A stretch of DNA of 64,000 nucleotides from NCBI RefSeq assembly GCF_016714285.1, contig NZ_JADJNN010000008.1:132669-196668 (forward strand), read 5' to 3'. Each line of letters begins with the position of its first letter. The stretch's first letter is position 1. Shown here in pieces: positions 2,111-57,063 of this stretch. The DNA comes from Nannocystis sp. GTDB lineage: Bacteria > Myxococcota_A > Polyangia > Nannocystales > Nannocystaceae. The notes under the pieces are model-generated. The model worked only from the letters and a program-made list of their open reading frames with translations. It had not been told where the DNA came from and searched no databases. The translations under genes were made by a program, and so were the position numbers.

Positions 2111-3109
2111 TCACAGCTCGCGGAGGCCGCGGCGGCGCAGCAGCCACAGGAACAGCGGGGCGCCGAGCAGGCTGGTGAGCACGCCCGGCGGGAGGACGAC
2201 GCTGGTGAAGGCGCGGGCGAGGGTGTCGACGAGGAGGACGAGCACGGCGCCGAGCAGGGCGGCGCGCGGCAGCAAGTGGCGGTGACCGGGGCCGCCCTGC
2301 ATGCGCGCGAGGTGGGGGACCAGCAGGCCGACGAAGGCGATGACGCCGCTGATCGCCGTGGCGGCGCCGACCAGGAGGCCGACGGCGAGCACGGTGCGGC
2401 GGCGCAGGCGGACGAGGTCGACGCCGAGCGAGGCGGCGACGTCGTGGCCGAGGTGGAGGGTGTCGAGGTCGCGGCGCAGCGAGGCGGCGAGCGCGAGGCC
2501 GAGGACGCAGGGGGGCAGGGCCCAGGCGAGGTGGATCCAGGTGCGGCCCTCGAAGCTGCCGAGGCTCCACTGCATCACGCGCAGGCCGAGGTCCCAGCGC
2601 TGGGCGCCGAGGGCGAGGCAGAGGGTCGCGATCGCGGCGCAGAGGGTGCCGAGGGCGAAGCCGGAGAGCAGGAGGGTGGCGAGGCTGTGGTTGGCGCGGT
2701 GGAGGGCGAGGAGGATGACGAGGACCAGGCCCGCGCCGGCGGCGGCGAGCAGCGGGGTGACCCACAGGCCGCTGGATTCGGCGCCGAGGAGGAAGCCGAT
2801 GACGGCGGCGAGCATGGCCCCGGCGCTGACGCCGAGGACGCCGGGGTCGGCGAGCGGGTTGCGGAACAGGCCCTGGGTGAGGGCGCCGGCGCAGGCCAGG
2901 GCGGCGCCGACGAGCGCGGCGAGCAGGGCCCGGGGCAGGCGCAGCTGCCAGACGATCGCGTCGCGCAGCGGTGGGAGCGGGTCGCCGAGGCCGAGGTGGG
3001 CGAGCAGGCTGCGCAGGGCCTCGTCGAGGCCGACCTCGCCGGGACCTGTCCCGAGGGCCAGGAGCAGGGCGGCGGGGAGGAGCAGGGCGGTGAGGTGGCG
3101 CAGGCGCAT
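2111..3109 (-). CDS. btuC: ABC transporter permease of the FecCD/BtuC family
   Basis: The motif FRNPLADPGVLGVSAGA and the polytopic hydrophobic profile are typical of the FecCD family. It lies downstream of a BtuF-like binding protein in a riboswitch-controlled B12 locus. Confidence 0.9.
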   Translation of the reverse strand: MRLRHLTALLLPAALLLALGTGPGEVGLDEALRSLLAHLGLGDPLPPLRDAIVWQLRLPRALLAALVGAALACAGALTQGLFRNPLADPGVLGVSAGAMLAAVIGFLLGAESSGLWVTPLLAAAGAGLVLVILLALHRANHSLATLLLSGFALGTLCAAIATLCLALGAQRWDLGLRVMQWSLGSFEGRTWIHLAWALPPCVLGLALAASLRRDLDTLHLGHDVAASLGVDLVRLRRRTVLAVGLLVGAATAISGVIAFVGLLVPHLARMQGGPGHRHLLPRAALLGAVLVLLVDTLARAFTSVVLPPGVLTSLLGAPLFLWLLRRRGLREL

Positions 3110-3181: not shown

Positions 3182-4087
3182 TCAGCGGGCGAGGACGCGG
3201 GCCTGCAGGAGCTCGGCGCTGACGATCATACCCTCGCCGGTGCCGCCGAGGTCGCGGGCGGGGATGGCGATGATGCGGCCGTCGCGGGCGGCGCGGGTGG
3301 CCGCGATGCCGGGGCCGGCGGCGAAGCGGGCCTCGGCGGCGGGGCAGGCGGGGTCGTCGGCCTCGGCGGCGGGGCAGGCGATGACGATGACCTCGGGGTC
3401 CCAGGCGACGAGGCGCTCCATGGCCACAGGGACATGTCCCGAGAGACCTGCGCTTTCGGGCAGGTTGACGAGGCCCGCGGCGGCGGCGACGTCGGCGAAG
3501 GTCGTGGCGCCGGCGCTGGTGTGGCCGTCGCCCCAGGCGACCGCGGTGGGCGCGGGGTCGGGCCTGTGGGCGGCGAGGGCGGCGAGGCGGCGGTCGAGGT
3601 TGGCGATGCTGGCCTCGGCGGCGGGGCTGGCCTCGACGGCGGCGGCGAGCAGGCGGAGCTGACGGCGGTAGTCGGCGAAGCCGGTGAAGCTGTCGAGCTC
3701 GAGCAGGCGGACGCGGTGGGCGGTGAGGAGGGCCTTGATCTCGGGGGCGCTGAAGCTGGCGATGACGACCAGGTCGGGGTCGCGGGCGAGCAGGCCCTCG
3801 CTGGTGACGGCGAGGCGCGGGAGCTCGGGCGGCCACTGGCCGGCGACGCGGCTGTAGCGGGGGTCATCGGCCATGCTGCTGACGCCGACGACGCGGGCGC
3901 GCGCGGCCGGGCCGAGGCTCCACAGGATCTCGTCGCTCAGCACGGTCTGCGAGACGACGCGGTGGGCCGGGCCGGTGCTGGGGGTCGGGGTCGGGGCGCA
4001 GGCGGCGAGCAGCAGCGCGGCGAGGAGCGGGGCGCGACGATGCTGTCCTGAGGGACAGGTGATCTGGCCGGAGGGACAGGTGGTCAT
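3182..4087 (-). CDS. btuF: Periplasmic cobalamin/siderophore-type ABC substrate-binding lipoprotein, BtuF-like (Peripla_BP_2)
   Basis: The ORF track extends to 4555, but that upstream portion overlaps the neighbouring gene and is compositionally junk. The real start is the ATG at 4085-4087, giving MTTCPSGQITCPSGQHRRAPLLAALLLAACAP with lipobox LAAC, overlapping the upstream gene's stop as ATGA. The sequence RVVSQTVLSDEILWSLG...VVGVS resembles BtuF/FhuD-class binding proteins. Confidence 0.85.
   Translation of the reverse strand: MTTCPSGQITCPSGQHRRAPLLAALLLAACAPTPTPSTGPAHRVVSQTVLSDEILWSLGPAARARVVGVSSMADDPRYSRVAGQWPPELPRLAVTSEGLLARDPDLVVIASFSAPEIKALLTAHRVRLLELDSFTGFADYRRQLRLLAAAVEASPAAEASIANLDRRLAALAAHRPDPAPTAVAWGDGHTSAGATTFADVAAAAGLVNLPESAGLSGHVPVAMERLVAWDPEVIVIACPAAEADDPACPAAEARFAAGPGIAATRAARDGRIIAIPARDLGGTGEGMIVSAELLQARVLAR
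4044..4082. repeat. CTGTCC-tgag-GGACAG palindrome plus two copies of GAGGGACAGGTG with a 21-bp period, at the lipoprotein A / btuF junction
   Basis: The structure can be read directly. It encodes TCPSGQI TCPSGQH at the BtuF N-terminus. Confidence 0.9.
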
Positions 4088-5304
4088 GGGAGCGGGGTGG
4101 CGGCGTAGGGGGCCAGGCCGGTGGCGATCGGTGTGCCGGCGAAGCGCGGGGTCGGCGGGTCGGCGCGCAGGTCCCACGCGCGCATGCCGGCGGCGGTGGG
4201 GGTGACGTCGCCGAACCATAGCGTGTCGCCGACGATCTCGAGGGTGGGGCCGACCGACTGGAGGCCGCGGGCGACCTCGACGATCGGCGCGTCGTCGTCG
4301 AGGCTGGCGCGCAGGAGCAGCACCTGGGACAGGTCGGCGCTGTAGCTGGCGATGTAGGCGTGGCGGTGCTCGGCGTCGAGGTCGAAGGCCTGGGGCAGCT
4401 GGTAGTCGGCGAGGCCGATCGCGGCGAGGCGGGCGGGGTCGACGGCCCAGGTGGAGGTGCGCTGGGCCAGGTCGACGCGCTCGAGGCCGGTGGTGAGGAT
4501 CAGGACGCTGTGGCCGGTGGGGTCGGCGGGGTCGGGGCGCCACTGCCGGGCCCACAGGCCGAGCAGGGGCATGGCTTGCACGCCGGGGCTCGCGGGATCG
4601 AGGTCGTGGAGGCGGCGGCTCGGGAGGTCGATCGGGGCGAGGTGGTCGCGGGTGTCGGTGGGCGCGAGCAGCTGGTTCTGGTCGAGGCGCTGGACGCTGA
4701 CGAAGAGCGTGTCGCCGCAGCGGATCGCCAGGTGGGCCTCGGGGTTGCCGTCGGCGTCGGCGAGCGGTGCGAGGTCGATGTGGCCGGCGAGGCTCGGGCG
4801 CGCGGGGTCGGCGATGTCGACGATCTGCACGCGCGGGGCGCCGAACATGGTGACGTGGGCGAGGTCGCCGACGACGGTGACCGCGTGCGGGTTGCTGCTC
4901 TGGACGCCGGGGACGGCGAGGCTCTGCTGGCCGAGCAGGGCGAGGCTGTCGGGCGCGAGCAGGTCGAGGGCGTCGAAGGTGTAGCGGTGGAGGACGATCA
5001 GGCGGCCGTCGCTGAAGACAGGGAGCGAGTCGGTGGTGGCGAGGGCGAGGTCCTTGTGGAGCTCGCCGGTGGCGAGGTCGAGGATGCTGAGCGCGCCGGT
5101 GCTGAAGTCGGTGGTGGTGATGGCGAGGCGGGTCGGGTCGCTGAGCTCGCCGACGCAGGCCTCGTCGAGCTCGGGTGGGCCCGCGAGCGGGGGGGCGGCC
5201 CCGGTGTCGCTGGTGTCGCTGGCGGCGGAGCTGGCGTCGTCGTCGGGTGGGGCGCAGGCCAACACGAGGCTGGCCGCGAGGACAGGTGCGAGGGGGCGGC
5301 GCAT
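4084..5304 (-). CDS. Lipoprotein paralog A of the B12 locus, 407 aa, possibly a beta-propeller and possibly BtuG-like
   Basis: The real start is MRRPLAPVLAASLVLACAPP with lipobox LVLAC, at the ATG complement 5302-5304. It shares blocks with the next gene, for example HSVLILTTGLERVDLAQRTSTWAVDPARLAAIGL against HTILVLTSGIERVDLAHGTSSWAVDPAVLAAAGI. Repeated Asp-rich loop and strand periodicity suggests a propeller. Confidence 0.7.
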   Translation of the reverse strand: MRRPLAPVLAASLVLACAPPDDDASSAASDTSDTGAAPPLAGPPELDEACVGELSDPTRLAITTTDFSTGALSILDLATGELHKDLALATTDSLPVFSDGRLIVLHRYTFDALDLLAPDSLALLGQQSLAVPGVQSSNPHAVTVVGDLAHVTMFGAPRVQIVDIADPARPSLAGHIDLAPLADADGNPEAHLAIRCGDTLFVSVQRLDQNQLLAPTDTRDHLAPIDLPSRRLHDLDPASPGVQAMPLLGLWARQWRPDPADPTGHSVLILTTGLERVDLAQRTSTWAVDPARLAAIGLADYQLPQAFDLDAEHRHAYIASYSADLSQVLLLRASLDDDAPIVEVARGLQSVGPTLEIVGDTLWFGDVTPTAAGMRAWDLRADPPTPRFAGTPIATGLAPYAATPLP

Positions 5305-5306
5305 GG

Positions 5307-6590
5307 TCAGGGGATCGCGAGCAGGAGGTAGGGGTCGCCGGGGGTGGCGATCGGGTCGGCCTCGACCGGGGGATCCTCGCTGAGATCGAAGCTGCGCAGG
5401 CGGGGGTTGTCGGTGGCGGCGTCGCCGACCCACAGGAGCTCGCCGACGCGCTCGATCGCCTTGTCGCGGGCGGTGAGGCCGGGGATCAGCTTGTGCGCGC
5501 TCGGGGCTTGCTCGCCCAGGCGGACGCGGAAGACGGCGGCGGCCGGGTAGTCGCCGTCGGTGGCGAGGAGGTCGATGCTGGTGGCGTCGGCGGCGACGCT
5601 GAAGCCGATCGGATCGAAGCCGTCGATGCCGGCGGCGGCGAGCACCGCGGGGTCGACCGCCCAGCTGGATGTCCCATGGGCCAGGTCGACGCGCTCGATG
5701 CCGGAGGTGAGGACGAGGATGGTGTGGCCGCTCGGGTCAGCGGGGTCGAGGCGGGCCTGCTTGGGCCAGGGGCCGAGGAGGGCGATCGCCTGCTCACCGG
5801 GGGTGCTCGGGTCGACGTCGATCGGCTCGCCGGTGCCGAGGTTCATGGCGACGAGGTAGCTGAGGTCGACGGGGTTGAAGTTGACGAGGCGCTGGACGCC
5901 GACGAACAGGGCCTCGCCGCAGGTGAAGGCGAGGCCGGGCTCGGGGCTGCCGTCGCGGTCGGCGAAGTCGATCAGGCTGAGGGCGTCGACCTTGGCCTCG
6001 GCGGCCGGGAGGTCGAGGTCGTAGACGGGGAGCTGCGCGCTGGCGAAGGCGGTGAGGTGGGCGCGGCCGTCGGGGCCGAAGGCGAGGGCCTGCGGGTTGG
6101 GGTCGGCGACGCCGTCGACGCTGACCATGAGCGTGGGCTTGGCGGCCCAGGTGTCGCCGTCGAGGATGTCGAGGCTGTTGAAGCCGAAGCGGCCGATGAT
6201 GACCAGCTTGCCGTCGCCCCACGCGAGCGCGGAGTCGGCGGGGGCGGGCGCGATGTCGGGGGTGAGCTTGTTGCTGGCGAGGTCGAGGACGTGGACGCTG
6301 GCGGGGTCCATGAGGTTGTTGGTGAGGATCGCCAGGCGGGTCGCGGTGGTCGGGCCGAGCGCGCAGGGGGCGTCGAGCTCGATGACGGGGGCCGGGTCGC
6401 CGGTGGTGGCGGTGTCGGTCGTGGCGTCGGTGCTCGTCGGTGCGGTGGTGGGCGCGCTGGTCTGGCTGGTTTCACCTGTGCTTTCGGACATGTCTGTTGT
6501 GCCAGCTTCGGCGCTGTCGCCGGTGCCGTGACCGGTGTTGGTGTGGCAGGCGGAGAGGAGGAGGAGGACGGGGAGGGTGGGGCGGAGCAT
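5307..6590 (-). CDS. Lipoprotein paralog B of the B12 locus, 427 aa, possibly a beta-propeller and possibly BtuG-like
   Basis: It starts MLRPTLPVLLLLSACHTNTG with lipobox LLSAC, followed by a Thr/Ser-rich linker. It is a paralog of 4084..5304. Its ATG lies 3 nt after the btuB stop, in the arrangement TGAtccATG. Confidence 0.7.
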   Translation of the reverse strand: MLRPTLPVLLLLSACHTNTGHGTGDSAEAGTTDMSESTGETSQTSAPTTAPTSTDATTDTATTGDPAPVIELDAPCALGPTTATRLAILTNNLMDPASVHVLDLASNKLTPDIAPAPADSALAWGDGKLVIIGRFGFNSLDILDGDTWAAKPTLMVSVDGVADPNPQALAFGPDGRAHLTAFASAQLPVYDLDLPAAEAKVDALSLIDFADRDGSPEPGLAFTCGEALFVGVQRLVNFNPVDLSYLVAMNLGTGEPIDVDPSTPGEQAIALLGPWPKQARLDPADPSGHTILVLTSGIERVDLAHGTSSWAVDPAVLAAAGIDGFDPIGFSVAADATSIDLLATDGDYPAAAVFRVRLGEQAPSAHKLIPGLTARDKAIERVGELLWVGDAATDNPRLRSFDLSEDPPVEADPIATPGDPYLLLAIP

Positions 6591-6593
6591 GGA

Positions 6594-8840
6594 TCAGGTC
6601 TCGTGGCGGGCCGGGGCGTCGAGCTCGACGCGGAGGGTGGTCCACAGGCTGGTGCCGGGGAGCGGGTAGAAGAAGAAGTCGGAGACGGGGACGGTGATCG
6701 CGGGGGCGCCGGCGATCGGCGGGCGCCAGGTGGTGGTGCGGAGGTTGAAGAGGTTGCGCACCTCGGCGGCGAGGTGGACGCGGCGGGCGAGGTGCAGCTC
6801 GACGGCGAGGCCGTGGAGGGCGCGGCTCGGGACCTCGTAGCGGCCGCTCGGGTCGAGGAAGGTGCGGGCCGCGTAGTCGAAGCTGTAGACCAGGCGCGGC
6901 TCGAGATCGGTGCGCCTGGCCTTGAAGACATGTCCGAAAGAACCTTGCGCGAACAGCTCGTGGCGCGGGCGACCGGGCAGGGGCTGGCCGCGCTGGGAGG
7001 GGTCGTCGCCGAGGTTGACGGGGGCGAGCAGGGTGTAGTTGGCGGACAGGCGGATGTCGCCGCGGAGCAGGCGGAGCGCGGCGCTGGTCTCGAAGCCGGA
7101 GACGCGGGCGCGGGCGACGTTCACGGGGCGCAGGCTGGGACCGGCCTGCTGCCACTGGATCAGGCGGTCGCTCCACGTGACGAAGCCAGCGGCGTGGGCG
7201 TAGAGGGATGTGCGGGCGCGGGTGAGGTCGAGGATGAAGCCGCCGTCGAGGCTGCTGCCGCGCTCGGGTCGCAGGCCCTCGTTGCCGACGATGTAGCCGC
7301 GGTCGCCGAACAGCTCGAGCAGGCTCGGGGGACGGAAGTAGCGGCCGCCGGCGAGGCGGAGGGAGAGGCCGTGGACGAGGCCGAGGCGGGCGGCGAGGCG
7401 CGGGCTGGCGCCGAGCTCGAGGTGGTCGGCGCCCTGGTCGTTCTGCTCGCCGCTGCCGGCGGGGACGGCGAAGCGGCTGCGGAGGACGTCGAGGCGGACG
7501 ATCGGCTGGAGGTGGAGACGATCGCCGGCGAGGTGTTGATCGAGCTGGAGGCCGAGGCCGAGGTTGACGCGCTGGCGGTTGCTGTCGCCCTGGGGCGGCG
7601 TGAGCAGGCGCTGGTCGACGCGGCTCCACTCCTGGCGGGCGTCGGCCATGGCGAGCAGCTGGGCGCCGCGCCACAGATCGAGGGTGAGGCGCGGCGAGAG
7701 GTAGAGGTCGAGGTTCCGGGTGCGCTGGTCGTCGACCCCGAGGCCGACCTCGCCGAGCGGGTCGCGGTAGCGGGTGCGCTCGACGGCGAAGCCGGCGACC
7801 AGGTCGACGTGGCCGGGGCGACCGCCGTCGTCGCCGAGCTCGCGGCGCACCCGGGCGACGCTGCGGGCGACCAGAGTGTCCAGCCTGGTGGCACGCGCCT
7901 GCTGGCCGGTGGCGAGGCCGGGGATGCCCTGGTGCTTGTTGAGCAGCAGCTCCTGGACGCTGTAGCGCCACGCGCCGGCGCGGCCGTGAACGGCGAGCTG
8001 GGCGAGCAGGCGGTCGTAGTCGTTGTTCTGGCGCCGCTCGTTGTGGTCGTCGCGGGGGTCTTGCAGGGTCTCGCCGAGGTTGTGGAAGTTGAAGTCCCCG
8101 GTGGCGCCGGCGTGGCCGATGCGGAGGTCGAGGCAGGGGCCGCGGCGGCGCGGGGCGAGCGGGAGGGAGGTGCTGGCGCGGGCCTCGCTAGCGCCGAAGG
8201 AGCCGAGGCCGAGGACGGCGCCGAAGCGGCGGCGGGTCGGGTCGCAGCGCAGGTCGCTGCCGAGATCGAGGGCGCCGCCGATCGCCGCGCCGCCGTACGC
8301 GACCGGGACCAGGCCGCGGTGGATCGTGACGCGGCCGAGGCTGTCGAGCGGGAGGTCGCCGAGGTTGACGACCCCGCCGCTGCCGCCGACCGGGACGCCG
8401 TCGAGGAAGACCGACACCTGCTGGGCTGAGGAGCCGCGCAGCGAGAGGGCGGAGAACTGGCCGAGGCCGCCGAGTGAGCGCACGGTGGCGCCGGCGCTGC
8501 GACCGAGCAGCTCGGGCAGGCCGTCGGCCGGGCGGGCGCCGGTGGGGTTGGCGAGCTCGATGCTGGTGGCGAAGCCGGGGCTGGCGGCGTCCTGCCGGCG
8601 CTGGGCGTCGAGGCCGTCGCCGCGGCCGTGGGCGACGACGGTGCGGTAGGGCGGGCTGGTCTTTGGGACAGGCTGGGTTGGGCTGGTCTTTGGGACAGCG
8701 GGGCTGGTCTTTGGGACAGCGGGGCTGGTCTTTGGGACAGGTGGCGCGAGGGCGCGGAGCTCGCGGGTGGTCAGCAGGGCGGCCGCGCAGGCGCACGCAG
8801 GCGCGAGGCGCACGCAGGCGACACGTATCGCGAGCCGCAC
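6594..8840 (-). CDS. btuB: TonB-dependent outer-membrane receptor, BtuB-like, controlled by a cobalamin riboswitch
   Basis: The plug domain reads SIELANPTGARPADGLPELLGRSAGATVRSLGGLGQFSALSLRGSSAQQVSVFLDGVPVGG...TIHRGLVPVAYGGAAIGGALDLGS and is followed by a long beta-barrel. The N-terminal extension carries the repeat APPVPKTSPAVPKTSPAVPKTSPTQPVPKTSP. The start is GTG. The C-terminus is atypical, ending ...LWTTLRVELDAPARHET. Confidence 0.9.
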   Translation of the reverse strand: MRLAIRVACVRLAPACACAAALLTTRELRALAPPVPKTSPAVPKTSPAVPKTSPTQPVPKTSPPYRTVVAHGRGDGLDAQRRQDAASPGFATSIELANPTGARPADGLPELLGRSAGATVRSLGGLGQFSALSLRGSSAQQVSVFLDGVPVGGSGGVVNLGDLPLDSLGRVTIHRGLVPVAYGGAAIGGALDLGSDLRCDPTRRRFGAVLGLGSFGASEARASTSLPLAPRRRGPCLDLRIGHAGATGDFNFHNLGETLQDPRDDHNERRQNNDYDRLLAQLAVHGRAGAWRYSVQELLLNKHQGIPGLATGQQARATRLDTLVARSVARVRRELGDDGGRPGHVDLVAGFAVERTRYRDPLGEVGLGVDDQRTRNLDLYLSPRLTLDLWRGAQLLAMADARQEWSRVDQRLLTPPQGDSNRQRVNLGLGLQLDQHLAGDRLHLQPIVRLDVLRSRFAVPAGSGEQNDQGADHLELGASPRLAARLGLVHGLSLRLAGGRYFRPPSLLELFGDRGYIVGNEGLRPERGSSLDGGFILDLTRARTSLYAHAAGFVTWSDRLIQWQQAGPSLRPVNVARARVSGFETSAALRLLRGDIRLSANYTLLAPVNLGDDPSQRGQPLPGRPRHELFAQGSFGHVFKARRTDLEPRLVYSFDYAARTFLDPSGRYEVPSRALHGLAVELHLARRVHLAAEVRNLFNLRTTTWRPPIAGAPAITVPVSDFFFYPLPGTSLWTTLRVELDAPARHET
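8652..8740. repeat. In-frame tandem array inside btuB: four copies of GGGCTGGTCTTTGGGACAG, three with a 21-bp period
   Basis: The array can be read directly. It encodes PKTSPAV repeats. Confidence 0.9.
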
Positions 8841-9019
8841 GTAGGCGACGCGAATGAAGCTGCGGCGCCCGTGGGCGCGCGAGGGCGTGGGGATCTTGGG
8901 GACGATGGCGAGTGAACTCCCGTCTCACCGAGGTCGTCCGCGCCGGTGGGCGCAGGGACCTGCCGCCTTGTCAGGGCGGGGGAGCGCAGGGCAGGTCTCC
9001 TGGCTAAAGGGTCATCCTC

Positions 9020-9160
9020 GATCGACGCCTTCCCACGGTCCTGCGGGTGCAGGAGCTCGCAGTGGCTGCGTGTCGATCTCGTCGCCTCTCACAGTGGCGG
9101 GAGCCGCGTCGGTGTTGCACCGACTTCCCTCTTTCGCGTCCTGGGCCCTGGGCCCGGGAC
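9020..9160 (-). promoter_or_regulatory. Cobalamin (AdoCbl) riboswitch in the 5' leader of btuB
   Basis: The minus strand reads gaaagAGGGAAGTCGGTGCAACACCGACGCGGCTCCCGCCACTGTGAGAGGCGACGAGATCGACACGCAGCCACTGCGAGCTCCTGCACCCGCAGGACCGTGGGAAGGCG. This contains the conserved AGGGAA...GGTG.AA...CCCGCCACTGT element, a second GCCACTG B12 box and GGGAAGGC. It ends about 180 nt upstream of the btuB start. Confidence 0.75.
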
Positions 9161-9209
9161 GACCGTGCGCTCGAGTCTGTTTGTCAGGGAACGGCGCACT
9201 TGTCGCTCG

Positions 9210-9398: not shown

Positions 9399-11012
9399 AT
9401 GAGAAACGCGCTCTCTGCTTCCTGTATTTTCATCACCGCGTTCGCCACCGGGTGTGGCGACGACAAGGCCGGGGACGAGGCGGGCGGCACGACGGAGGCC
9501 GCGAGCACGAGCGGCGGTGAGGACCCGACGACCGGCGAGCCCTTCGTGCCGTTTCCGGCGCGCGGCGGGATCGTGATCACGGCGGTCGAGGCCAACCCGG
9601 GGGTGGCGGTGCCGATCGGGAAGGAGGGCGCGCCGGTCGGCGGCAAGGACCGCACCTCGTATATCCCGAAGGGCCGCGACACGCTGATCCGGGCCTTCGT
9701 CGACGTGCCCGACGATTGGACCCCGCGGCCGATCGAGGCGCGCCTGATGCTGAGCGGCGGAGGCGTGGACCAGACGCTGCAACAGACAGTGACGATCAGC
9801 GAGGACTCGTTCGTGGGCGACCTGACCTCGACCTTTTACTTCGGCGTGCACGCGGACGTGATCGTGCCGGGGCTCAAGTACCAGATCGAGCTGTGGGAGG
9901 CGGCGCCGGGCCAGGAGGGGCTGCCCGAGGCGCCGACGCCGGTGGCGCTCAAGGACGGGCCGGGCCCGGTCGGGGTGGAGTCGGCCTTCACCGAGATGCG
10001 CGTGGTGTTGGTCCCGATCGACTACAGCTACGAGAGCTGCAACCAGAAGGTCGATGGCGAGGCGCAGCGCAAGGCCTTCGAGGACGCGCTGTTCCAGCAG
10101 AACGGCATCGCGTCGCTCGAGCTCGAGGTGCACGCGCCGTACAAGGTCGACTACGACATGGTCAGCTTCGGCGGCCTGAGCCAGCTGGTCAACGAGATGA
10201 GTCAGCTGCGCACGGTCGAGGCGGCCGACGACAACGTCTACTACTACGCGCTGTTCGACAGCTGCCACGGCTGCATCGGCGACGGCGGGATCCAGGGCGG
10301 GTGCACGGTCGGGCTCGCGGCCGACATCACCGGGCCCGATCCGGGCGACGCCCACTGGCGCGCCGCGGCCGGGCAGCTCATCGGGAACGCGGCCGAGACC
10401 TTCGTCCACGAGATCGGACACACGCAGGGGCGGCAGCACGTGTACTGCGCCGGCGCTGGCGTGCAGGCGCAGGGCACGGATCCGACTTATCCCCACGAGG
10501 ACGGGCGCATCGGCGTGTGGGGCTTTGGCGTCCGCGACTACAAGCTGCGCCATCCGACGGCCAACTCGGACTACATGAGCTACTGCGGGCAGGTCTGGGT
10601 CTCGGACTGGCAGTGGAACGCGACATACAACCGCATCGTGACGCTGAGCCAGTGGGAGAAGTCGGGCGCGGGGCAACCGGCGGGCGCCGGTGGCGGCGTG
10701 CTCATCGCCGCGGTCGACCCCGACGGCAAGCAGATGTGGTGGACCGGCCCCGGCGGGCTGAGCTCGTCGCGCGAGGCGAGCGCGACGCACTCGGTGATCT
10801 TCGAGTTCACGGACGGCGAGGTCGAGGCGCAGGCGCAGGTCAGCGTGCGCCCGCACTACGCGACCCGGAACATCGTCGCCGCGTTGCCGGCGGGCTTCGA
10901 CGAGCGCGAGCTCGTGAGCGTGAAGCTGCGCGACGAGCAGGGTGAGCGCCGCGTGGAGGCGGCGGCGATCCGTCGCCTCCACCACCCGGATCGCCTGCGA
11001 GACGCGCGCTAG
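9399..11012 (+). CDS. Secreted lipoprotein, metzincin-type zinc metalloprotease
   Basis: It starts MRNALSASCIFITAFATGCGDD with lipobox ATGC. The motif HEIGHTQGRQH matches HExxHxxGxxH, and a Met-turn follows at SDYMSY. An unusual AT-rich patch (ccacaaaacaaaaataaggtcagtag) precedes the ATG. Confidence 0.8.
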   Translation: MRNALSASCIFITAFATGCGDDKAGDEAGGTTEAASTSGGEDPTTGEPFVPFPARGGIVITAVEANPGVAVPIGKEGAPVGGKDRTSYIPKGRDTLIRAFVDVPDDWTPRPIEARLMLSGGGVDQTLQQTVTISEDSFVGDLTSTFYFGVHADVIVPGLKYQIELWEAAPGQEGLPEAPTPVALKDGPGPVGVESAFTEMRVVLVPIDYSYESCNQKVDGEAQRKAFEDALFQQNGIASLELEVHAPYKVDYDMVSFGGLSQLVNEMSQLRTVEAADDNVYYYALFDSCHGCIGDGGIQGGCTVGLAADITGPDPGDAHWRAAAGQLIGNAAETFVHEIGHTQGRQHVYCAGAGVQAQGTDPTYPHEDGRIGVWGFGVRDYKLRHPTANSDYMSYCGQVWVSDWQWNATYNRIVTLSQWEKSGAGQPAGAGGGVLIAAVDPDGKQMWWTGPGGLSSSREASATHSVIFEFTDGEVEAQAQVSVRPHYATRNIVAALPAGFDERELVSVKLRDEQGERRVEAAAIRRLHHPDRLRDAR

Positions 11013-22933: not shown

Positions 22934-23030
22934 CTGTCCCGTGCGCCAGGTGTATGCGGCGGGCGCCGGTCCCGTGCGCCAGGTGTATGCGACCGCCTGT
23001 CCCATGCGCCAGGTGCGAAGGGACCTGTCC
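22934..23030. repeat. Intergenic array of three copies of CTGTCCCRTGCGCCAGGTG plus GGGACCTGTCC, between ptsI and the hydrolase gene
   Basis: The array can be read directly. The period is about 31-32 bp, and it ends about 20 bp before the GTG start at 23051. Confidence 0.85.
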
Positions 23031-23050
23031 TCGCGGTCAGGTAGGCGCGC

Positions 23051-23959
23051 GTGAGGGATCCGGGCTTCTCGCTCAGCCTCCGGGACGCCTCGCGCCTGGT
23101 CGAGCTCTCCTTCGGCCGCGTCTTCCTCCGCGACCACGGCCCGGCCGCCCCCGCCGCGCCCGGTGGGCCGCCGGTGCTGCTGTTGCACGGCCTGCTGGTG
23201 ACCAGCCACAGCTTCACCCGCCTGATCCCCGAGCTCGCCAGCGACCACCGCGTGCTCGCGCCTGACCTGCCTGGCTGCGGCGACAGCGACCGCCCGCCGC
23301 CGGTGCTGTGCGCCGACTACAGCCCGCGCTGGCTGGCCGCCGCGCTGCAGGAGCTGCTCGATCGCCTCGGGCTCGCGCAGGTCGACCTCGTCGGTCACTC
23401 GTGGGGCGGGGCGATCGCCGTCTGCCTCGCCGACGCCGCGCCCGCGCGGGTGCGTCGCCTGGTCCTCGTCGACCCGACCCTGTTCGCCATGCCGGTGCCG
23501 ATCGAGGGCCGCCTGGCGACGGTGCCCCGCATCGGCCCTTACATGTTTCACAACATGTACCGCCGCAACGAGCTGCGCCGCTACCTCGGCCGCGCCTTCT
23601 CCAGCGAGCGGCTGGTCGACGAGGCCGACGTCGACATCTACTGGGACCGGCTCGCGCGCAGCGGCGGGCGCGAGGCGGCCCACGCGATGCTCATGCAACT
23701 GCTCGGCGCCGACACCATGGCGGGCATGCTGCCGCGGATGCGCGCGTTGACTGCTCCGACGCTGGTCGTGTGGGGTGACCGCGACGGCATCGTCCCGCGC
23801 GAGCACGCCGATCGCGTCGCTGCCGCGATCCCCGGGGCGACGCTGCGGTGGCTCGAGGGCTGCGGCCACACGCCGCCCGAGGAGCAGCCCGAGGCCCTCG
23901 CCGCGCTGCTGCGCCAGCACCTGGACGGCGCCGGCGTGGGCGCCTCCGCCCATCCCTGA
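23051..23959 (+). CDS. Alpha/beta-fold hydrolase
   Basis: VLLLHGLLVTSHSF...LVGHSWGGAIAV is the nucleophile elbow GHSWG. The start is GTG. Confidence 0.8.
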   Translation: MRDPGFSLSLRDASRLVELSFGRVFLRDHGPAAPAAPGGPPVLLLHGLLVTSHSFTRLIPELASDHRVLAPDLPGCGDSDRPPPVLCADYSPRWLAAALQELLDRLGLAQVDLVGHSWGGAIAVCLADAAPARVRRLVLVDPTLFAMPVPIEGRLATVPRIGPYMFHNMYRRNELRRYLGRAFSSERLVDEADVDIYWDRLARSGGREAAHAMLMQLLGADTMAGMLPRMRALTAPTLVVWGDRDGIVPREHADRVAAAIPGATLRWLEGCGHTPPEEQPEALAALLRQHLDGAGVGASAHP

Positions 23960-23973
23960 TACCCTCGCTCGCG

Positions 23974-26900
23974 GTGCGTCTCGCCCGACCGACGTCGCCT
24001 CGCCGGGCCCGGCCAACGCCGCGCTGGCTGTGGCTGTGCTCGGCGCTGTGGCTGCTGCTCTGCTGCCTGTCCCCGGGGACAGCCGCCGCCAACAGCCGCG
24101 ACCTGAAGTGGAAGACGCTGACCACCGAGCACTTCCAGATCCACTACTACGCCGGCGCCGAGGCGGCCGCGGATCGGGCCGCGATGGTGCTCGAGCGGGC
24201 CCACGCGCGCCTCAGCGTCGGCCTCGGCCACAGCCCGAGGATCCGTACCCACGTCGTGATGACCGACGCCACCGACTCGGCCAACGGCCGGGCCACCGTG
24301 TTCAGCTTCCCGCGCATCGACGCCAACGTCACAGCCCCCGACTCGCTGTCCGTGCTCGAGAGCTACGACGACTGGCTCGACGCCCTGCTCAGCCACGAGT
24401 ACACGCACATCGTCCACAACGACACGATCCACGGGCTGCCGCGGGTGCTCAACACGATCCTCGGCTTCGGCGTGATCGGCCGGGTCTGGCCGCCGAACGG
24501 CCTCCAGCCGCGCTGGGTGCTCGAGGGCCTGGCGACCTACGAGGAGTCGCGCCTGACCAGCCAGGGCCGCCACCGATCGACGCAGTTCGACATGATGCTG
24601 CGCATGGCCGTGCTCGAGCAGGGCTTCCCGACGCTCGACCGCATCTCCGCGCCGGCCACGATCTTCCCGCAGACGACCACCGTCTACCTCTACGGCCTGC
24701 ACTTGATCCACTACCTCGGCACCCGCTACGGCCACGACAAGCTGCGCGAGCTCAGCCACCGCTACGGCGGCCGGGCGATCCCCTACAGCCTGAACCGCAC
24801 CGTGCAGGAGGTCTATGGCGTCGACTTCCAGCAGCTCTGGCAGGACTTCCAGCTCGACATCACCCGGCGCTTCGAGGCCCAGGCGCGGGCGATCCGCGGG
24901 CGAGGGATCCGCGAGGGTCGACGCCTCACCTTCTCCACCGCCAGCGAGGCCTCGAGCTTCAGCCGCCACCCGACCTGGTCGCCCGACGATCAGTACCTCT
25001 ACTTCTACGAGGACGACGGCCACAGCAACCCTGGCGTGCGCCGGATCGCCGCGCGCGGCGGACAGATCCGCGAGGGCATCGGCGTCGGTCGCCAGGGCAT
25101 GACCCGCGGCATCGAGCGCGTCATCGAGGCCCAGGGTTCGTGCACGCCGAACCTCGTGCCGGGCTCCGGCGGCGACATCGTGTTCGAGCAGGGCAACCTG
25201 CACGACCTCCGCTACAGCTGGAACGAGCTGTTCCTGTGGCACCCCGCCGACCCCGACGCCCAGGCCGCCCGTCAGAGCCCGGGCGAGCTCATCCAGCTGA
25301 CCTCCGGCCTGCGGGCGCGCGACCCCCACGTCAGCCCCGACGGCCGCAGCGTCGTGTTCATCCGCAACGACATCGCCCAGTCGCGGCTCGCCTTCCTCGA
25401 TCTCCCGACCCGCGAGGTCCGCGAGCTTGCCCCGGCTGGCCGCGTCGAGCAGCTGTACAGCCCGCGCTTCTCGCCGGACAGCCGCAGGGTCGCCTTCTCG
25501 GCGCACCGCGACGGCTATCGCGACATCTACATCCACGATCGTGACACCGGCGCCCGCGAGCGGGTCACCGCCGACCGCTTCCTCGACATGTCGCCGACCT
25601 GGACCCCCGACGGCCGTTACCTGCTGTTCGCCAGCGACCGCGACGATGTCTTCAACATCTACGCCTATGACCTCGAGGCCGGCCGGGTGCAGCAGGTGAC
25701 CAACGTGATCGGCGGCGCCTTCGACCCGGTGGTCAGCAACGACGGCCAGCGCCTGGCCTACGTCGGCTTCTCCTCCACCGGCTACGACCTGTGGGTGATG
25801 AAGCTCGACCCGGCCGAGTTCTTCACGCCGCTGCCGATCTCCGAGGACCTGCCGCAGGCCGACGACCCGACCCCCGAGTTGCCGGCCCTGCACCGCCGGG
25901 CGCCCTCGCTGCGCGCCCGTCGCTACCAGCCGATCCGCACCTTCTTCCCGCGGGTCTTGCTGCCGGCCTCGTTCGACTTCGGCAACAGCGGTCAGGGCGT
26001 CGACCTCGGCCTCAAGCTCGACATCGCCGACGTCGTCGGCTTCCACAGCCTGAGCGCCAGCTTCCGCGACTACCTCCGCTACCGCGAGCCGGTCGGCGCC
26101 GTGAGCTACAGCTACAGCCAGCTGCTCCCGACCTTCAGCCTCGCCTTCGTCCGCGACCTGAGGGTCTACGACGACCGCGGTGTCCGCTACAACTACGACC
26201 ACGCGTCGCGCGACGGCGTCTTCGAGCCCTACCTGCTCACCGGCTACCGCGAGCGCCAGACGGTGGTGCGCGCCTCGGTGTCGGTGCCGATCGTCCGCCA
26301 CGCGATCCACAGCGCCAGCGCAGCCGCGACCTACGAGTTCTCGCGGCTGCGCGACCTCAACGAGGATCGCGAGGCGATCGACCCCAACGCGCCGACCTCG
26401 GTGCCGCCCGCGGTCGGCGATGTCGGCAGCCTGAGCCTGTCGCTGCGCTACGACAACCTGCGCAGCGTCACCTACGGCTACGCCAGCGAGACCGGCCGCC
26501 ACGCCGCGTTCAACCTGTCGATCGTCGACCGTCACCTCGGCGGCCAGTACGGCGACATCAAGGCGTCGGCGAGCTACGGCGAGCGGATCCGCATGCCCTG
26601 GCGCGGTCATCAGGTGCTCGCGCTGCGCCTCGGCGGCGGCGCCTCGGCCGGCGGCCTCGGTCGCCTCGGGGCCTTCCGCCTCTATGGCACGCCGCTGCCG
26701 AACCGCGTGATCCAGGACTTCCTGCTGCGCAGCCCCTTCGCCGAGGCCGGCACGCTCCGCGGCTTCGTCCCCGCGGGCACCGCGGGCGCCTACTACCTCG
26801 TGCTCAACGTCGACTACCGGATCCCGCTCGCCGACGTCGAGCGCGGCATGGGCTCGCTGCCGCTGTTCATGCGCCGCGTCACCGCGATCCCCTTCCTCGA

Positions 26901-47092: not shown

Positions 47093-48856
47093 TCAGCTGC
47101 CCTCGAGGTGGGCGCGCTGGACGATGCGGGCGTCGAGGGTGAGGTAGCCGCGCGGCGGGCCGATCAGGCGCAGGGGGCTGAGCTCGACGCTGATCAGGCG
47201 GCCGGATGTCCCCGGGGACAGGTCGCGGTCGAAGTGCTGGACGAGGGCGTCGAGGCGCAGCAGCAGGGCGGCGAGCTCGGCGACGCCGGGGTCGCTGGCG
47301 CGGCGCAGGGCGGGCACGCGGGCGAGCACGGCGTGGGCGAGCAGGCGGGCGTCGGCGGGGGCGAGCGGGGCGAGGGCGAAGCAGGGCTCGGCCGGCGGCG
47401 ACAGGCCGAGGGCGCGGCCGAAGATCGCCATCTCGCCGGTGTGCAGGCGGATCGCGCCGCAGTGCAGCTCGAGGCCCTCGGGGGCCTGCTCGGCGACCAG
47501 CACGCCGTCGAGGTGGGCGGTCGGCGCGTGGGTCTCGACGTTGTGGACGATCGTCGCGTAGGCGCGGCGGACCGCGGCGCTGGTGGTGAGGCCGAGGACC
47601 ACCGCGCCGAGCTCCTGCTTGCGCCGCAGGTCGGGGCTGACGGCCTTGAGCACGACGGGGTAGCCGATCGTGTCGGCGTACTGGGCCGCGCCGCTGGCCG
47701 AGCTGGCGACCGCCTGGCGCGTGATCTCGACGCCGAAGCCGCGGAGCACGACCTTGCTCTCGTGCTCCGAGAGCACCTGACCGGCGCCGCGCAGGACCTC
47801 CTCGGCGCGGGCGATCGCGGCGGGGTCCTGCTGCGGGGCTGCGAGCTCGGGCGCGGCGGCCAGGAGGGCGCGGGTCTGCCGGCGCCGCAGCAGCGCGGCC
47901 TGGGCGAGGAAGGCGGCCGTCGGCGCGGCGAGGCCTGGGCCTGGCAGCGGCGCCTCCATGCCGACGGCGGCGCCGAGGGTCGGCAGGGCGCGGCGGGCCT
48001 GGGCCCAGCGGGCGAGCAGGCCCGGATCGTGGCTGTCCTCGGGGACAGGTGCAGGCGGCGCACACAGCAGGGCCAGCAGCTGCGGGCTCGGGAACAGCGG
48101 GCCGGTGAAGCGCTCGAGCGCGTGGGCGGCGACGGCGGCGGCGAGGCTGGGGTCGCGGGGGAGGTCGAGGCGGGCCGGCGGGAGCCCGAGCGGGACGATC
48201 GCGTGCTCGGCCGCGTCGCCGGCCGCGCGGGCCCAGCGGGCCCAGCCCGGGTGCAGGCTGGCCGCGGCGACGAAGCCGAGCGCGCGGGTGCCCGCGAGCT
48301 GCGGGTCGGCGAGCCACAGCGGCCACCACGGCGGGGTCGGGCAGGCGGCCATGCGCACGCCCGCGGGCAAGGCTGGCGCTTGGGACAGGTGATCTGTCCG
48401 CGGGGACAGGTCGGTGGAGGCTGGCGCTTGGGACAGGTGAGCTGGCGCTTGGGACAGGTCGTCGGAGGCGGGGTCGGAGGCGAGGGCGGCGAGCAGGGCG
48501 GCGAGCTCGGCGGGGGCGGTGGCGCAGGCGACGGTGTCGCCGGTGGGGCCGATCTGCAGGCGGGCGTCGGGGCCGAGGAGCAGGGTGTCGGGGAGGGCGG
48601 GGAGCGAGCCGGGCTCGGCGGGGCCGGTGACGACCAGGAGGGCAGGGGGGCGCTCGCGGAGGGCGCGGAGCAGGGCGGGGCCGAGGCTGTGGACGACGAC
48701 GACGAGGGCGCCGTGGTCGCGCACGCGGCGGGCGAGCTCCGCGTCGCGCAGCAGCTCGCCGGGCAGGCGCACGTGCGGGGCGGCGGCCTCGGCGATGAGC
48801 GTCGCCGTCGCGGCGGGCGCGAGCAGGGCCTGGAGCGCTGTCGCCGGCGGCGTCAC
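47093..48856 (-). CDS. Protein with a C-terminal ATP-grasp domain (acetate-CoA ligase ADP-forming beta-like); the N-terminal region is unassigned
   Basis: The C-terminal VLSEHESKVVLRGFGVEITRQ...YPVVLKAVSPDL is ATP-grasp_5-like. The in-frame repeat DDLSQAPAHLSQAPASTDLSPRTDHLSQAPA comes from a 21-bp tandem array. Confidence 0.55.
   Translation of the reverse strand: MTPPATALQALLAPAATATLIAEAAAPHVRLPGELLRDAELARRVRDHGALVVVVHSLGPALLRALRERPPALLVVTGPAEPGSLPALPDTLLLGPDARLQIGPTGDTVACATAPAELAALLAALASDPASDDLSQAPAHLSQAPASTDLSPRTDHLSQAPALPAGVRMAACPTPPWWPLWLADPQLAGTRALGFVAAASLHPGWARWARAAGDAAEHAIVPLGLPPARLDLPRDPSLAAAVAAHALERFTGPLFPSPQLLALLCAPPAPVPEDSHDPGLLARWAQARRALPTLGAAVGMEAPLPGPGLAAPTAAFLAQAALLRRRQTRALLAAAPELAAPQQDPAAIARAEEVLRGAGQVLSEHESKVVLRGFGVEITRQAVASSASGAAQYADTIGYPVVLKAVSPDLRRKQELGAVVLGLTTSAAVRRAYATIVHNVETHAPTAHLDGVLVAEQAPEGLELHCGAIRLHTGEMAIFGRALGLSPPAEPCFALAPLAPADARLLAHAVLARVPALRRASDPGVAELAALLLRLDALVQHFDRDLSPGTSGRLISVELSPLRLIGPPRGYLTLDARIVQRAHLEGS
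48376..48462. repeat. In-frame tandem array of four 21-bp units (CTTGGGACAGGTGA core) inside the ATP-grasp gene
   Basis: The sequence cttgggacaggtgatctgtccgcggggacaggtcggtggaggctggcgcttgggacaggtgagctggcgcttgggacaggtcgtcgg encodes HLSQAPA repeats. Confidence 0.9.
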
Positions 48857-54650: not shown

Positions 54651-57063
54651 GGGCGACCCGCGCGGCGGCCTCGGCGGCCTCACGTGCCGCTTCAGCCGTT
54701 GCCTCCGCGGCCTCGGCCTCGCGCGCCAGATCTTCGGCCGCGGCCGCCGTCTCGCGGGCGATTCGCTCGGCCCGGTGGCGCTCGGCCGCGACGCGCAGCT
54801 CGCCCGCCTCCGGCCCGCGCAGCAGCAGGCAAGTCAGCGGGGGCAGGGTGATGCGCAGCGAGAAGGGCCGATCGTGGGCTGGCTCGGGCTCGGCCTCGAA
54901 GCTGTCTGCCAGCGACACGATCGCCGTCTGTTCATCGCCGCTGTAGGCCGCCGCGTCGCTGCGATCGATCAGGGTCCAGCGCCCCTCGGCGGGCACGCCG
55001 ATGCGCTGCTCCGTCCACGTCACCGGGGTGAAGTTCAGGGCCACGAGCATCACCGGTCCGCGGCTCGGCAGGCGCATGTACACCGCCAGGCTGCGCTGGC
55101 GATCGTCGACCACCATCCACTCGAAGCCCGCGGGATCGTGGTCGAGCTCGTGCAGCGCCGGGTCGGCGCGGTAGAGCTGGGCCACGCGACGCAGCCAGCG
55201 CAGCGCGCCCGCGTGCGCCGGCGATCGGAGCAGCTCCCAGTCGAGCTCGCGCTCGTGGCTCCACTCGCGCACCTGGCCGAACTCGCCGCCCATGAACAGC
55301 AGCTTGCGGCCCGGCGTGCTGAACATGTACCCGAGCAGCAGGCGCAGGCCGGCGAACTTCGCGGGCGTGTCCCCGTACATCTTGCGGATCAGCGAGCCCT
55401 TGCCGTGCACGACCTCGTCGTGCGACAGCGGCAGCATGTAGCGCTCGTTGTACGCGTACCACATGCGAAAGGTCAGCTCGTTGTGGTGCTGCGCGCGCGT
55501 GACGGGGTCGCGGCCGAGGTAGCGCAGGCTGTCGTGCATCCAGCCCATGTCCCACTTGAGATCGAAGCCGAGGCCGCCGCGCTCGACCGGGCCGGTGACC
55601 AGCGGCCACGCCGTCGACTCCTCCGCGATCGTGATCACGCCCGGGTGGCGCGCGTGGATCGTCTGGTTCAGCGCCCGCAGGAAGGCGACCGCCTCGAGGT
55701 TCTCGCGCCCGCCGTGCGCGTTCGGCTGCCACTGGCCGGGCTGACGCGAGTAGTCGAGGTAGAGCATCGAGGCCACCGCGTCGACCCGGATCGCGTCGAC
55801 GTGATAGCGCTCGATCCACATGGACGCGGAGCTGAGCAGGAAGGCCCGCACCTCGTGGCGCCCGTGGTTGAAGATCAGCGTGTTCCAGTCCGGGTGCACG
55901 CCGCGGCTCGGGTCGCGGTGCTCGTAGAGATAGGTGCCGTCGAAGCGGTGCAGCCCGTGCGCGTCGCCCGGGAAGTGGCCCGGCACCCAGTCGAGGATCA
56001 CCCCGATCTCGGCGCGGTGCAGCTCGTCGATCAGGTACATCAGCGCCTGCGGCCCGCCGTAGCGGGCGCTCGGGGCGAAGTAGCCGCTGGTCTGGTAGCC
56101 CCACGATCCGTAGAAGGGGTGCTCGGTGAGCGGCATGAACTCGACGTGGGTGAAGCCCAGCGCCCGCACGTGCGCGACCAGCTTCGCCGCGATCTCGCGG
56201 TAGCCGAGCCACGCGCCCTCGGGCCCGCGCAGCCACGAGCCGAGGTGCAGCTCGTAGACCGAGATCGGCGCGTGTCGACCTTGCCGCGCGGCCCGCTCGC
56301 GCAGCCACGCGTCGTCGCGCCAGGCGTACTCGAGGTCGGCGATCCGCGAGGCCGTGTGCGGCGGCAGCTCCGTGGCCAGCGCGCAGGGGTCGGCCTTGTC
56401 GAGCACCTCGCCGCGCATCCCGATCACACGGTACTTGTAGAGCATCCCGACCGCCGCCTCGGCGACGCGCCCGATCCACAGCCCGCCGCCGCCGCGCGCG
56501 AGCGGGTGGCGGAAGGGGTCCCAGTCGTTCCACTCGCCGATCACGCTGACGTGGCGCGCGTTCGGGGCCCACACCGCGAACTGCACGCCGCCCTCGGCGA
56601 GCAGCTGCGCGCCGAGCTTTTCATACAACCGCAGGTGCGTGCCCTCGGCGAGGTAGTGCAGGTCGTCGGCGCTGATGCTGGGGTCTTGGGTCGGCCGCGC
56701 GAGGTAAAGCCGCGGATCTGCGGGCGCCTCGGGCACCTCGGGTACCTCGTCGGGCAGATACAAGATGGCGTCCGCGCTGGCCGCGAGCACCTCGGCGGGG
56801 CTGTCCTTCGGGACAGGTACATCGTCGCCGAGGTACACGATCGCCTCGGTCTGCACGGCCACCTCATCGCCCGAGACGTCGACTGTCACCGCGGCCTCGG
56901 CCTCCGCCTCGGCCTGCTCCGGCCTGGCCTTCGGGACAGGTGCATCGTCGGGCAGGTACAGGATCGAGTCGGCGTTGCTGGCCAGCACCGCCGCTGCCCT
57001 GGGCTTCGCCCGCGCCGTGCCCTGCTTCGTCTCCCTCGATGGTTGCCGCGGACGCTTGCTCAT
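54610..57063 (-). CDS. glgB: 1,4-alpha-glucan branching enzyme with a ~130-aa N-terminal extension
   Basis: The GH13 branching-enzyme core reads HVEFMPLTEHPFYGSWGYQ...ILDWVPGHF. The N-terminal extension carries the repeats ILYLPDDAPVPK...VYLGDDVPVPK...ILYLPDEVPEVPE. Confidence 0.9.
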   Translation of the reverse strand: MSKRPRQPSRETKQGTARAKPRAAAVLASNADSILYLPDDAPVPKARPEQAEAEAEAAVTVDVSGDEVAVQTEAIVYLGDDVPVPKDSPAEVLAASADAILYLPDEVPEVPEAPADPRLYLARPTQDPSISADDLHYLAEGTHLRLYEKLGAQLLAEGGVQFAVWAPNARHVSVIGEWNDWDPFRHPLARGGGGLWIGRVAEAAVGMLYKYRVIGMRGEVLDKADPCALATELPPHTASRIADLEYAWRDDAWLRERAARQGRHAPISVYELHLGSWLRGPEGAWLGYREIAAKLVAHVRALGFTHVEFMPLTEHPFYGSWGYQTSGYFAPSARYGGPQALMYLIDELHRAEIGVILDWVPGHFPGDAHGLHRFDGTYLYEHRDPSRGVHPDWNTLIFNHGRHEVRAFLLSSASMWIERYHVDAIRVDAVASMLYLDYSRQPGQWQPNAHGGRENLEAVAFLRALNQTIHARHPGVITIAEESTAWPLVTGPVERGGLGFDLKWDMGWMHDSLRYLGRDPVTRAQHHNELTFRMWYAYNERYMLPLSHDEVVHGKGSLIRKMYGDTPAKFAGLRLLLGYMFSTPGRKLLFMGGEFGQVREWSHERELDWELLRSPAHAGALRWLRRVAQLYRADPALHELDHDPAGFEWMVVDDRQRSLAVYMRLPSRGPVMLVALNFTPVTWTEQRIGVPAEGRWTLIDRSDAAAYSGDEQTAIVSLADSFEAEPEPAHDRPFSLRITLPPLTCLLLRGPEAGELRVAAERHRAERIARETAAAAEDLAREAEAAEATAEAAREAAEAAARVARVAAAIASELAGE

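Follow-up and report, generated by a model that had tools for sequence, protein, structure and literature searches.

A riboswitch-headed operon with two paralogous lipoproteins

In a 64-kb stretch of DNA from Nannocystis sp. (the window), a single strand carries, in this order, a cobalamin riboswitch, a TonB-dependent receptor, two lipoproteins that we call A and B, a BtuF-like binding protein and a BtuC-like ATP-binding cassette (ABC) permease (Table 1). A preliminary description, made from the letters of the sequence, had placed two tandem paralogous lipoproteins between btuB- and btuF-type genes of a Myxococcota-like genome and had proposed them as candidate BtuG-like surface proteins for B12 capture. 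The gene arrangement and the taxonomic assignment both hold up, the latter because the nearest named relatives belong to Nannocystis and the Nannocystaceae. The junctions are as tight as had been described: the receptor stop and the A start are joined as TGAtccATG (a 3-nt spacer), and the end of B overlaps the start of the btuF-like gene by 4 nt (ATGA). The A stop and the B start are similarly close (TGAccATG, a 2-nt spacer).

Both proteins begin with a lipoprotein signal peptide, also in line with that description: the N-terminus of A (MLRPTLPVLLLLSAC) contains the lipobox and cysteine LLSAC, and that of B (MRRPLAPVLAASLVLAC) contains LVLAC. For B, we set the start at the ATG at 5304 and not at the GTG at 5433 of the mechanically called open reading frame (ORF), because the ATG yields a normal signal peptide. 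Behind the cysteine lies a disordered, low-complexity linker rich in Asp, Ser and Thr (~55 aa in A and ~30 aa in B), for which the predicted local distance difference test score (pLDDT) is below 50 in the models discussed below. BLASTP aligns A and B with 38% identity over 359 aa (E 2e-66), and the shared blocks that had been quoted, GH(T/S)(I/V)L(V/I)LT(S/T)G(I/L)ERVDLA and TS(S/T)WAVDPA.LAA.G, are present in this alignment; judged by sequence, the two proteins are paralogous far beyond chance. Neither matches a Pfam or NCBIfam model at E <= 0.01. The sole hits of the pair in those collections, to the LVIVD repeat (E 0.12) and Mucin (E 0.037), were judged unusable.

Table 1. Positions of the operon features, flanking genes and repeated motif in the window, and of corresponding genes in related loci (L numbers)
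Feature	Position	Strand	Details
Cobalamin riboswitch aptamer, operon head	8973-9182	minus	Rfam RF00174, 98.4 bits vs gathering 31.5, full-length model
TonB-dependent outer-membrane receptor, presumed corrinoid transporter	6594-8840	minus	Pfam Plug 4.5e-12, TonB_dep_Rec_b-barrel 2.8e-29
Propeller lipoprotein A, receptor-adjacent, more divergent paralog	5307-6590	minus	ATG start, 427 aa
Propeller lipoprotein B, clustering with single copies from related genomes	4084-5304	minus	ATG start, 406 aa
BtuF-like substrate-binding protein	3182-4087	minus	Pfam Peripla_BP_2 5.9e-15
BtuC-like ABC permease	2111-3109	minus	Pfam FecCD 3.5e-83
Predicted lipoprotein, divergent from the riboswitch	9399-11012	plus	537 aa
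ORF ~570 nt downstream of the permease	484-1539	minus	351 aa
Motif CTGTCCCNNNGGNCAG sites	2089-2104, 3046-3061, 4043-4079, 8656-8740, 22934-24082, 47206-48457, 50870, 56801-56939		
LIC_13355-like protein, example	L002 9209-9943		
LIC_13355-like protein, example	L003 9221-9949		
Nannocystis radixulma gene at the place matching 9399-11012	L001 4310-5962		
Gene at the position equivalent to 484-1539	L001 13702-14754		350 aa

Both lipoproteins are predicted to be propellers most similar to BtuG

AlphaFold2 models of A and B, built as single chains with a 44-sequence alignment, are confident and all-beta (pLDDT 92.1 and predicted template modeling score 0.88 for B; pLDDT 87.3 for A), and their strands form seven four-stranded blades, giving a seven-bladed propeller in each case. 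The earlier suggestion that the Asp-rich loop pattern was compatible with a propeller agrees with these models. Strong acidity marks both mature propellers (net charges -30 and -25), and each contains exactly two cysteines, at equivalent positions.

When the models were compared with the PDB using Foldseek, a check that had been proposed at the outset, BtuG proved to be the best structural match for the pair. For B, the top 16 entries were all BtuG1, BtuG2, BtuG3 or apo BtuG2 (3dsm), with E from 3e-12 to 1e-9 and target-normalized template modeling (TM) scores of 0.62-0.73 for single-domain BtuG chains. For A, an archaeal S-layer YVTN propeller (1l0q) ranked first and ranks 2-17 were all BtuG, with target-normalized TM-scores of 0.67-0.74 for the single-domain chains. 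The companion comparison with HmuY-type haem-binding lipoproteins came out negative: no HmuY entry was found among the 50-60 best matches listed in any of three structure searches.

XusB, a Bacteroides xenosiderophore-binding lipoprotein (DUF4374), and other non-SusD lids of TonB-dependent transporters are structurally less similar to A and B than BtuG is, and XusB binds siderophores in an iron context, as opposed to the B12 context of A and B. BtuK1, a B12-binding propeller lipoprotein of B. thetaiotaomicron (PDB 9s6c), is also a weaker structural match than BtuG; unlike A and B, BtuK has an N-terminal PKD domain and is not a BtuB-adjacent lid. When PDB sequences were searched with a profile, nothing beyond marginal matches at the level of blades emerged, to BtuG1 and E. 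coli YncE (3vgz), with E ~1e-3. Propellers of the YncE/YVTN type share the blade sequence pattern of A and B. Unlike A and B, both YncE and 1l0q lack a lipid anchor, a partner transporter gene and a B12 context.

In the search with B, lactonase-like propellers came next after BtuG, from E 2e-9. That A and B could be lactonase, SMP-30 or YVTN-type enzymes that modify corrinoids or another imported substrate nevertheless strikes us as improbable: BtuG outranks the lactonases in both structure searches, no protein of the window matches any enzyme family, and strict adjacency to a receptor together with the surface-sorting domains of some homologs (see below) suits capture better than metabolism. 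A propeller of the 6-phosphogluconolactonase type (Pfam Lactonase, PF10282) was rejected as a candidate, as we found neither a match to the family model nor an enzymatic context.

The family is widespread and accompanies riboswitch-controlled receptors

A word-indexed homology search returned 79 relatives, nearly all from Nannocystaceae. The clade-specific family that this implied was overturned by an exhaustive profile search, which found 4139 clusters (50% identity) at E <= 1e-3, most of them matching over the full length, with 2099 reaching E <= 1e-10 and 524 reaching E <= 1e-30. Scanning one representative genome for each species yielded 79 loci: the myxobacterial part covers Nannocystis species, Paraliomyxa, Enhygromyxa and other Myxococcota, and the remainder Candidatus Eisenbacteria, Krumholzibacteriia, Latescibacterota, Gemmatimonadota, Binatia, Methylomirabilota and Deferrisomatales. 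Rather than being peculiar to Myxococcota, the family occurs in at least five further non-Bacteroidota phyla.

ORFs in these loci were searched with profiles of the window's operon proteins, and riboswitches with an nhmmer model of 18 Rfam-verified examples. In the 65 informative loci, defined as those in which 2.7 kb or more of sequence precedes the first propeller gene, a TonB-dependent receptor lies directly upstream of the propeller in 62, and a same-strand cobalamin riboswitch lies upstream in 58 by nhmmer and in 59 once Rfam had added locus L026. At locus L030, Rfam finds a cobalamin riboswitch in the divergent orientation. Rfam also detects a riboswitch in 13 of the 13 non-myxobacterial loci with enough upstream DNA and in all four loci found by exact protein look-up, one of which encodes a 31%-identical relative. 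The preliminary description had asked whether homologs might occur in non-B12 contexts only; among the relatives, a B12 context is clearly the rule, with few exceptions.

Probable surface display by lipid anchor or type IX secretion

Two architectures divide the family. In Myxococcota, 'Deltaproteobacteria' genome bins, Deferrisomatales and Binatia, the lipobox cysteine is followed by a Gly/Ser/Asp-rich linker and there is no C-terminal extension, whereas the proteins from Eisenbacteria, Latescibacterota, Gemmatimonadota and Krumholzibacteriia have an ordinary (type I) signal peptide and a C-terminal extension of ~105 residues. Of the close family members, 40 of 44 retain the lipobox cysteine, as do 47 of 61 in the broad set. 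Models that match the extension are FlgD_ig and TIGR04183, the type A sorting domain of type IX secretion (24.9-34.0 bits for three of the four proteins tested, against a curated cut-off of 23, and 22.9 bits for the fourth). Type IX secretion sorting domains direct their cargo through the outer membrane and onto the cell surface, so their presence on homologs suggests that the family is cell-surface or secreted. This sequence evidence, the strongest indirect argument against a periplasmic location, favors a site of action outside the cell, like that of BtuG.

The competing arrangement would have the propellers face the periplasm, on the inner leaflet of the outer membrane or on the inner membrane, where they would take corrinoid from the receptor and pass it to the BtuF-like protein, as a chaperone or relay and not as an external lid. 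A lipid-tethered relay of this kind is conceivable in that the BtuF-like protein itself appears to be a lipoprotein; we know of no lipoprotein surface-export signal in Myxococcota, and nothing in the sequence fixes the topology. We nonetheless regard a periplasmic relay as unlikely, given the sorting domains on homologs in four other phyla, the fact that the closest solved structures are surface lids, and a long, disordered, acidic tether that suits an outward reach.

Proposed function and relationship to BtuG

We consider it likely that A and B assist the riboswitch-controlled receptor by capturing corrinoids, in the manner of Bacteroides BtuG. At low B12, the riboswitch would permit expression of the operon, and the two acidic propellers would be exported, lipidated at their N-terminal cysteines and tethered to the outer membrane by the flexible acidic linker. 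Corrinoid would bind a propeller face made of the D-to-A and B-to-C loops of blades 1-5, after which at least one of the propellers would dock onto the receptor from the extracellular side and hand the corrinoid over, and the BtuF-like lipoprotein and BtuC-like permease would move it onward.

The likeness to BtuG (BT1490, BT1954 and BT2095 of B. thetaiotaomicron) extends beyond the fold: BtuG too is a strongly acidic seven-bladed propeller with an N-terminal lipoprotein signal, is encoded directly downstream of a TonB-dependent B12 transporter in a cobalamin-riboswitch operon, and commonly has paralogs. The differences are also clear. The A/B family has the signatures TTTDF and LADADGNPE and the invariant residues D92 and R107, all missing in BtuG, and is ~40-60 residues longer; it is found outside Bacteroidota, where some members use a type IX sorting domain, and in the window two copies stand in tandem in one operon.

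For a profile comparison, BtuG sequences were taken from Table S2 of PMC6143338 and aligned. With first-sequence match states, hhalign gave a collinear alignment of B 3-382 with BtuG2 18-347 (91.8% probability, E 7e-7), and in global mode the probability was 97.8%, both in a comparison against the BtuG alignment alone. In the collinear alignment, the lipobox cysteine of the family coincides with Cys32 of BtuG2, and three pairs of near-invariant residues coincide as well (E189 with E175, D226 with D204 and G373 with G339, family residue first). PF16819 (DUF5074), the BtuG family model, against which BT1954, BVU2056 and BT1490 score 49-74 bits (cut-off 27.2), is matched by 5 of 61 diverse family members, all below threshold (best E 3.9e-4); it ties with NHL (5 of 61 each) as the most-hit propeller family in Pfam, with none higher. 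Distant homology between the A/B family and BtuG is, on these alignments, probable but unproven.

Conserved residues point to one face of the propeller. D92, R107 and P399 are invariant in both the close and the broad alignment, and D66, D111, N138, P139, D183, D185, G186, E189, D226, G273 and G373 are near-invariant in both; A and B each retain every family-invariant residue. On the strand map of the model, D66, R107, D111, R206 and G273 lie in B-to-C loops and D92, N138, D183, D185, E189 and Q243 in D-to-A loops, two sets that propeller topology predicts to share a face. In BtuG2, the B12 contacts lie on blades 1-4 of one negatively charged face of a strongly negative surface that attracts B12 (PMC10404256) and include E55, F58, Q93, N107, S131, W194, S195, Y196, Q219 and Y239 (PMC13616437). 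In our mapping, which uses the low-identity alignment and not a structural superposition, several of these positions appear to correspond to conserved residues of the family: F58 aligns to F67 (Phe or Tyr in 56 of 61 members), S131 to N138 (kept in 59 of 61), Q219 to Q243 and W194 to an aromatic column, and E175 of BtuG2 aligns to the near-invariant E189. N107 and Q93 fall beside the invariant R107 and D92; these two, together with S195, Y196, Y239, Y316 and Y335, are not aligned with conserved residues in the collinear alignment. The family seems to use the same binding face as BtuG2, with much chemistry of its own.

This face also bears on whether the propellers might aid the receptor in some other way, by assembling or stabilizing its barrel or by binding another ligand imported alongside, for example a metal chelate. 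BamB and TolB propellers are among the weaker fold matches of A and B, and the receptor is no close relative of a characterized BtuB: in comparisons with the PDB, its plug region alone matches BtuB of E. coli (E 1e-8) and BtuB1 of B. thetaiotaomicron (E 2e-5), and in NCBIfam the receptor scores under the cut-off against TonB-B12 and BtuB. A role of this sort is hard to reconcile with the frequency of the cobalamin riboswitch across phyla and with the alignment of the conserved acidic face to the B12 site of BtuG2, and we give it very little credence.

Several observations weigh against a BtuG-like role in corrinoid capture. A and B give no PF16819 match at E <= 1, and their identity to BtuG is only 9-17%. 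Run with default settings, hhalign returned a blade-shifted match to the BtuG alignment, which implies that part of the signal is generic similarity among propeller blades; that match was discarded as evidence of orthology, since its blades are out of register. The strict invariants D92, R107, D183 and D185 lack a conserved BtuG counterpart, so that the binding chemistry would differ. The LADADGNPE signature loop, which we take to resemble acidic metal-binding loops, might bind a metal instead of contacting the corrin. Because the lipoprotein export signal of Bacteroidota is exclusive to that phylum (PMC6143338), export to the outer leaflet in Myxococcota is not inferable from sequence. Finally, five of the 65 informative loci (L027, L028 [Enhygromyxa salina], L031, L077 and L078) have no cobalamin riboswitch by either nhmmer or Rfam; their regulation may differ, or a riboswitch may be located outside the flanking sequence retrieved. 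The riboswitch-less loci usually retain a receptor ahead of the propeller.

A and B are not members of the BtuG sequence family PF16819 and belong to a distinct, at most distantly related family. The original proposal of BtuG-like candidates is supported by the propeller fold, by BtuG as the nearest structure and by the B12 locus. On balance, we lean towards the view that A and B represent a large unnamed family of corrinoid-capturing propellers (the 4139 clusters), partners of riboswitch-controlled transporters in many phyla that are displayed by a lipid anchor or by a type IX domain.

Duplication within the Nannocystaceae

The preliminary description had also drawn attention to the duplication of the gene. 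The two tandem paralogs of the window bear this out, for a restricted group: tandem propellers occur in 13 of the 79 loci, all from Nannocystis or Nannocystaceae and limited to one Nannocystaceae clade. In other Nannocystaceae, a single propeller is followed by a ~243-residue protein that the LIC_13355 lipoprotein family matches weakly and under the cut-off (E 1e-6 to 1e-13). This LIC_13355-like protein (~243-350 aa) takes the place of the second propeller in the single-copy relatives and is missing from the window. In six distant loci (L053, L062, L076, L080, L030 and L026) it stands directly behind a cobalamin riboswitch of its own, and it may be another unrecognized accessory of B12 uptake.

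In a neighbor-joining tree, the receptor-adjacent, A-type copies ('position 1') form one clade, and the B-type second copies fall in the other, grouped with the single-copy genes of Nannocystaceae. This grouping implies that A is the copy that diverged and that B corresponds to the ancestral single gene. With the invariant residues complete in each, the two proteins are probably both functional. The two types of locus differ further in their transport genes: in a comparison of the window and loci L005-L017 and L022 with L002, L003, L020, L021, L023 and L024, all two-propeller loci lack the ABC ATPase gene, whereas the single-propeller Nannocystaceae loci end with binding protein, permease and ATPase. 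A search with a two-sequence profile detected no btuD-like ABC ATPase gene within the window. We can only speculate that A and B are alternative lids, or that one is a lid and the other a tethered scavenger replacing the LIC_13355-like protein. If corrinoid capture is indeed their role, the Nannocystaceae pair, in replacing that lipoprotein, would be either a two-component relay or a set of lids that differ in corrinoid preference.

Possible implications for B12 uptake beyond Bacteroidota

For the success of gut Bacteroides in competing for vitamin B12, BtuG serves as the model. BtuG and pairs of the BtuB/BtuG type have been described as confined to Bacteroidota (PMC6143338; bioRxiv 10.1101/2023.03.17.533168), and lids of transporters in general as essentially restricted to it. 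The 2023 preprint, which found virtually all lid homologs with conserved proximity in that phylum, asks why lids are linked to it (bioRxiv 10.1101/2023.03.17.533168). A 2026 review covers the spread of BtuJ and BtuH beyond Bacteroidota and not that of BtuG (PMC13616437). Our full-text search of open-access papers and bioRxiv found no description of a BtuG-like family outside Bacteroidota, in agreement with the earlier statement that such proteins were not described there.

If our reading is correct, B12 uptake by a transporter plus a lid would not be a specialty of Bacteroidota, and lid-assisted scavenging would extend past the gut to phyla of soil, sediment and the sea. Myxobacteria would then have to possess a route that puts lipoproteins on the outer surface, and the finding turns lipoprotein surface display in these bacteria into a testable question. 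Genome annotators would gain a marker for corrinoid uptake, as no curated model covers the family. The same locus is present in the culturable Nannocystis exedens (DSM 71, locus L005), where the proposal can be tested directly.

Other features of the operon and its surroundings

The top NCBIfam match of the BtuC-like permease is the vitamin B12 permease BtuC (1.3e-68, under the curated cut-off). The N-terminus of the BtuF-like protein (MTTCPSGQITCPSGQHRRAPLLAALLLAAC) contains the lipobox LLAAC, which suggests that this binding protein is lipid-anchored and not free in the periplasm, or that its start codon lies further downstream; an odd duplicated segment, TCPSGQ, precedes the lipobox. The start codon of the receptor is uncertain because of PAVPKTS repeats at the 5′ end of its ORF.

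Divergent from the riboswitch is the gene of a predicted lipoprotein with the N-terminus ...FATGCGDD and a HEIGH zinc-metalloprotease-like motif; the gene at the matching place in Nannocystis radixulma is without a Pfam match. The ORF downstream of the permease is likewise without a Pfam match (E <= 0.1), as is the gene at the equivalent position of locus L001.

A 16-nt near-palindromic motif, CTGTCCCNNNGGNCAG, occurs 30 times in the window with at most one mismatch (mean 0.83 and maximum 4 in shuffled sequence). Four copies, spaced by 21-27 nt, lie at the 5′ end of the receptor ORF and encode its PAVPKTS repeats, and two copies at the start of the btuF-like gene encode TCPSGQ twice; the true start codons of these genes may lie downstream of the repeats. 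The motif could be a dispersed repeat or the binding site of a regulator, and an additional cluster of it is found at 48373-48457.

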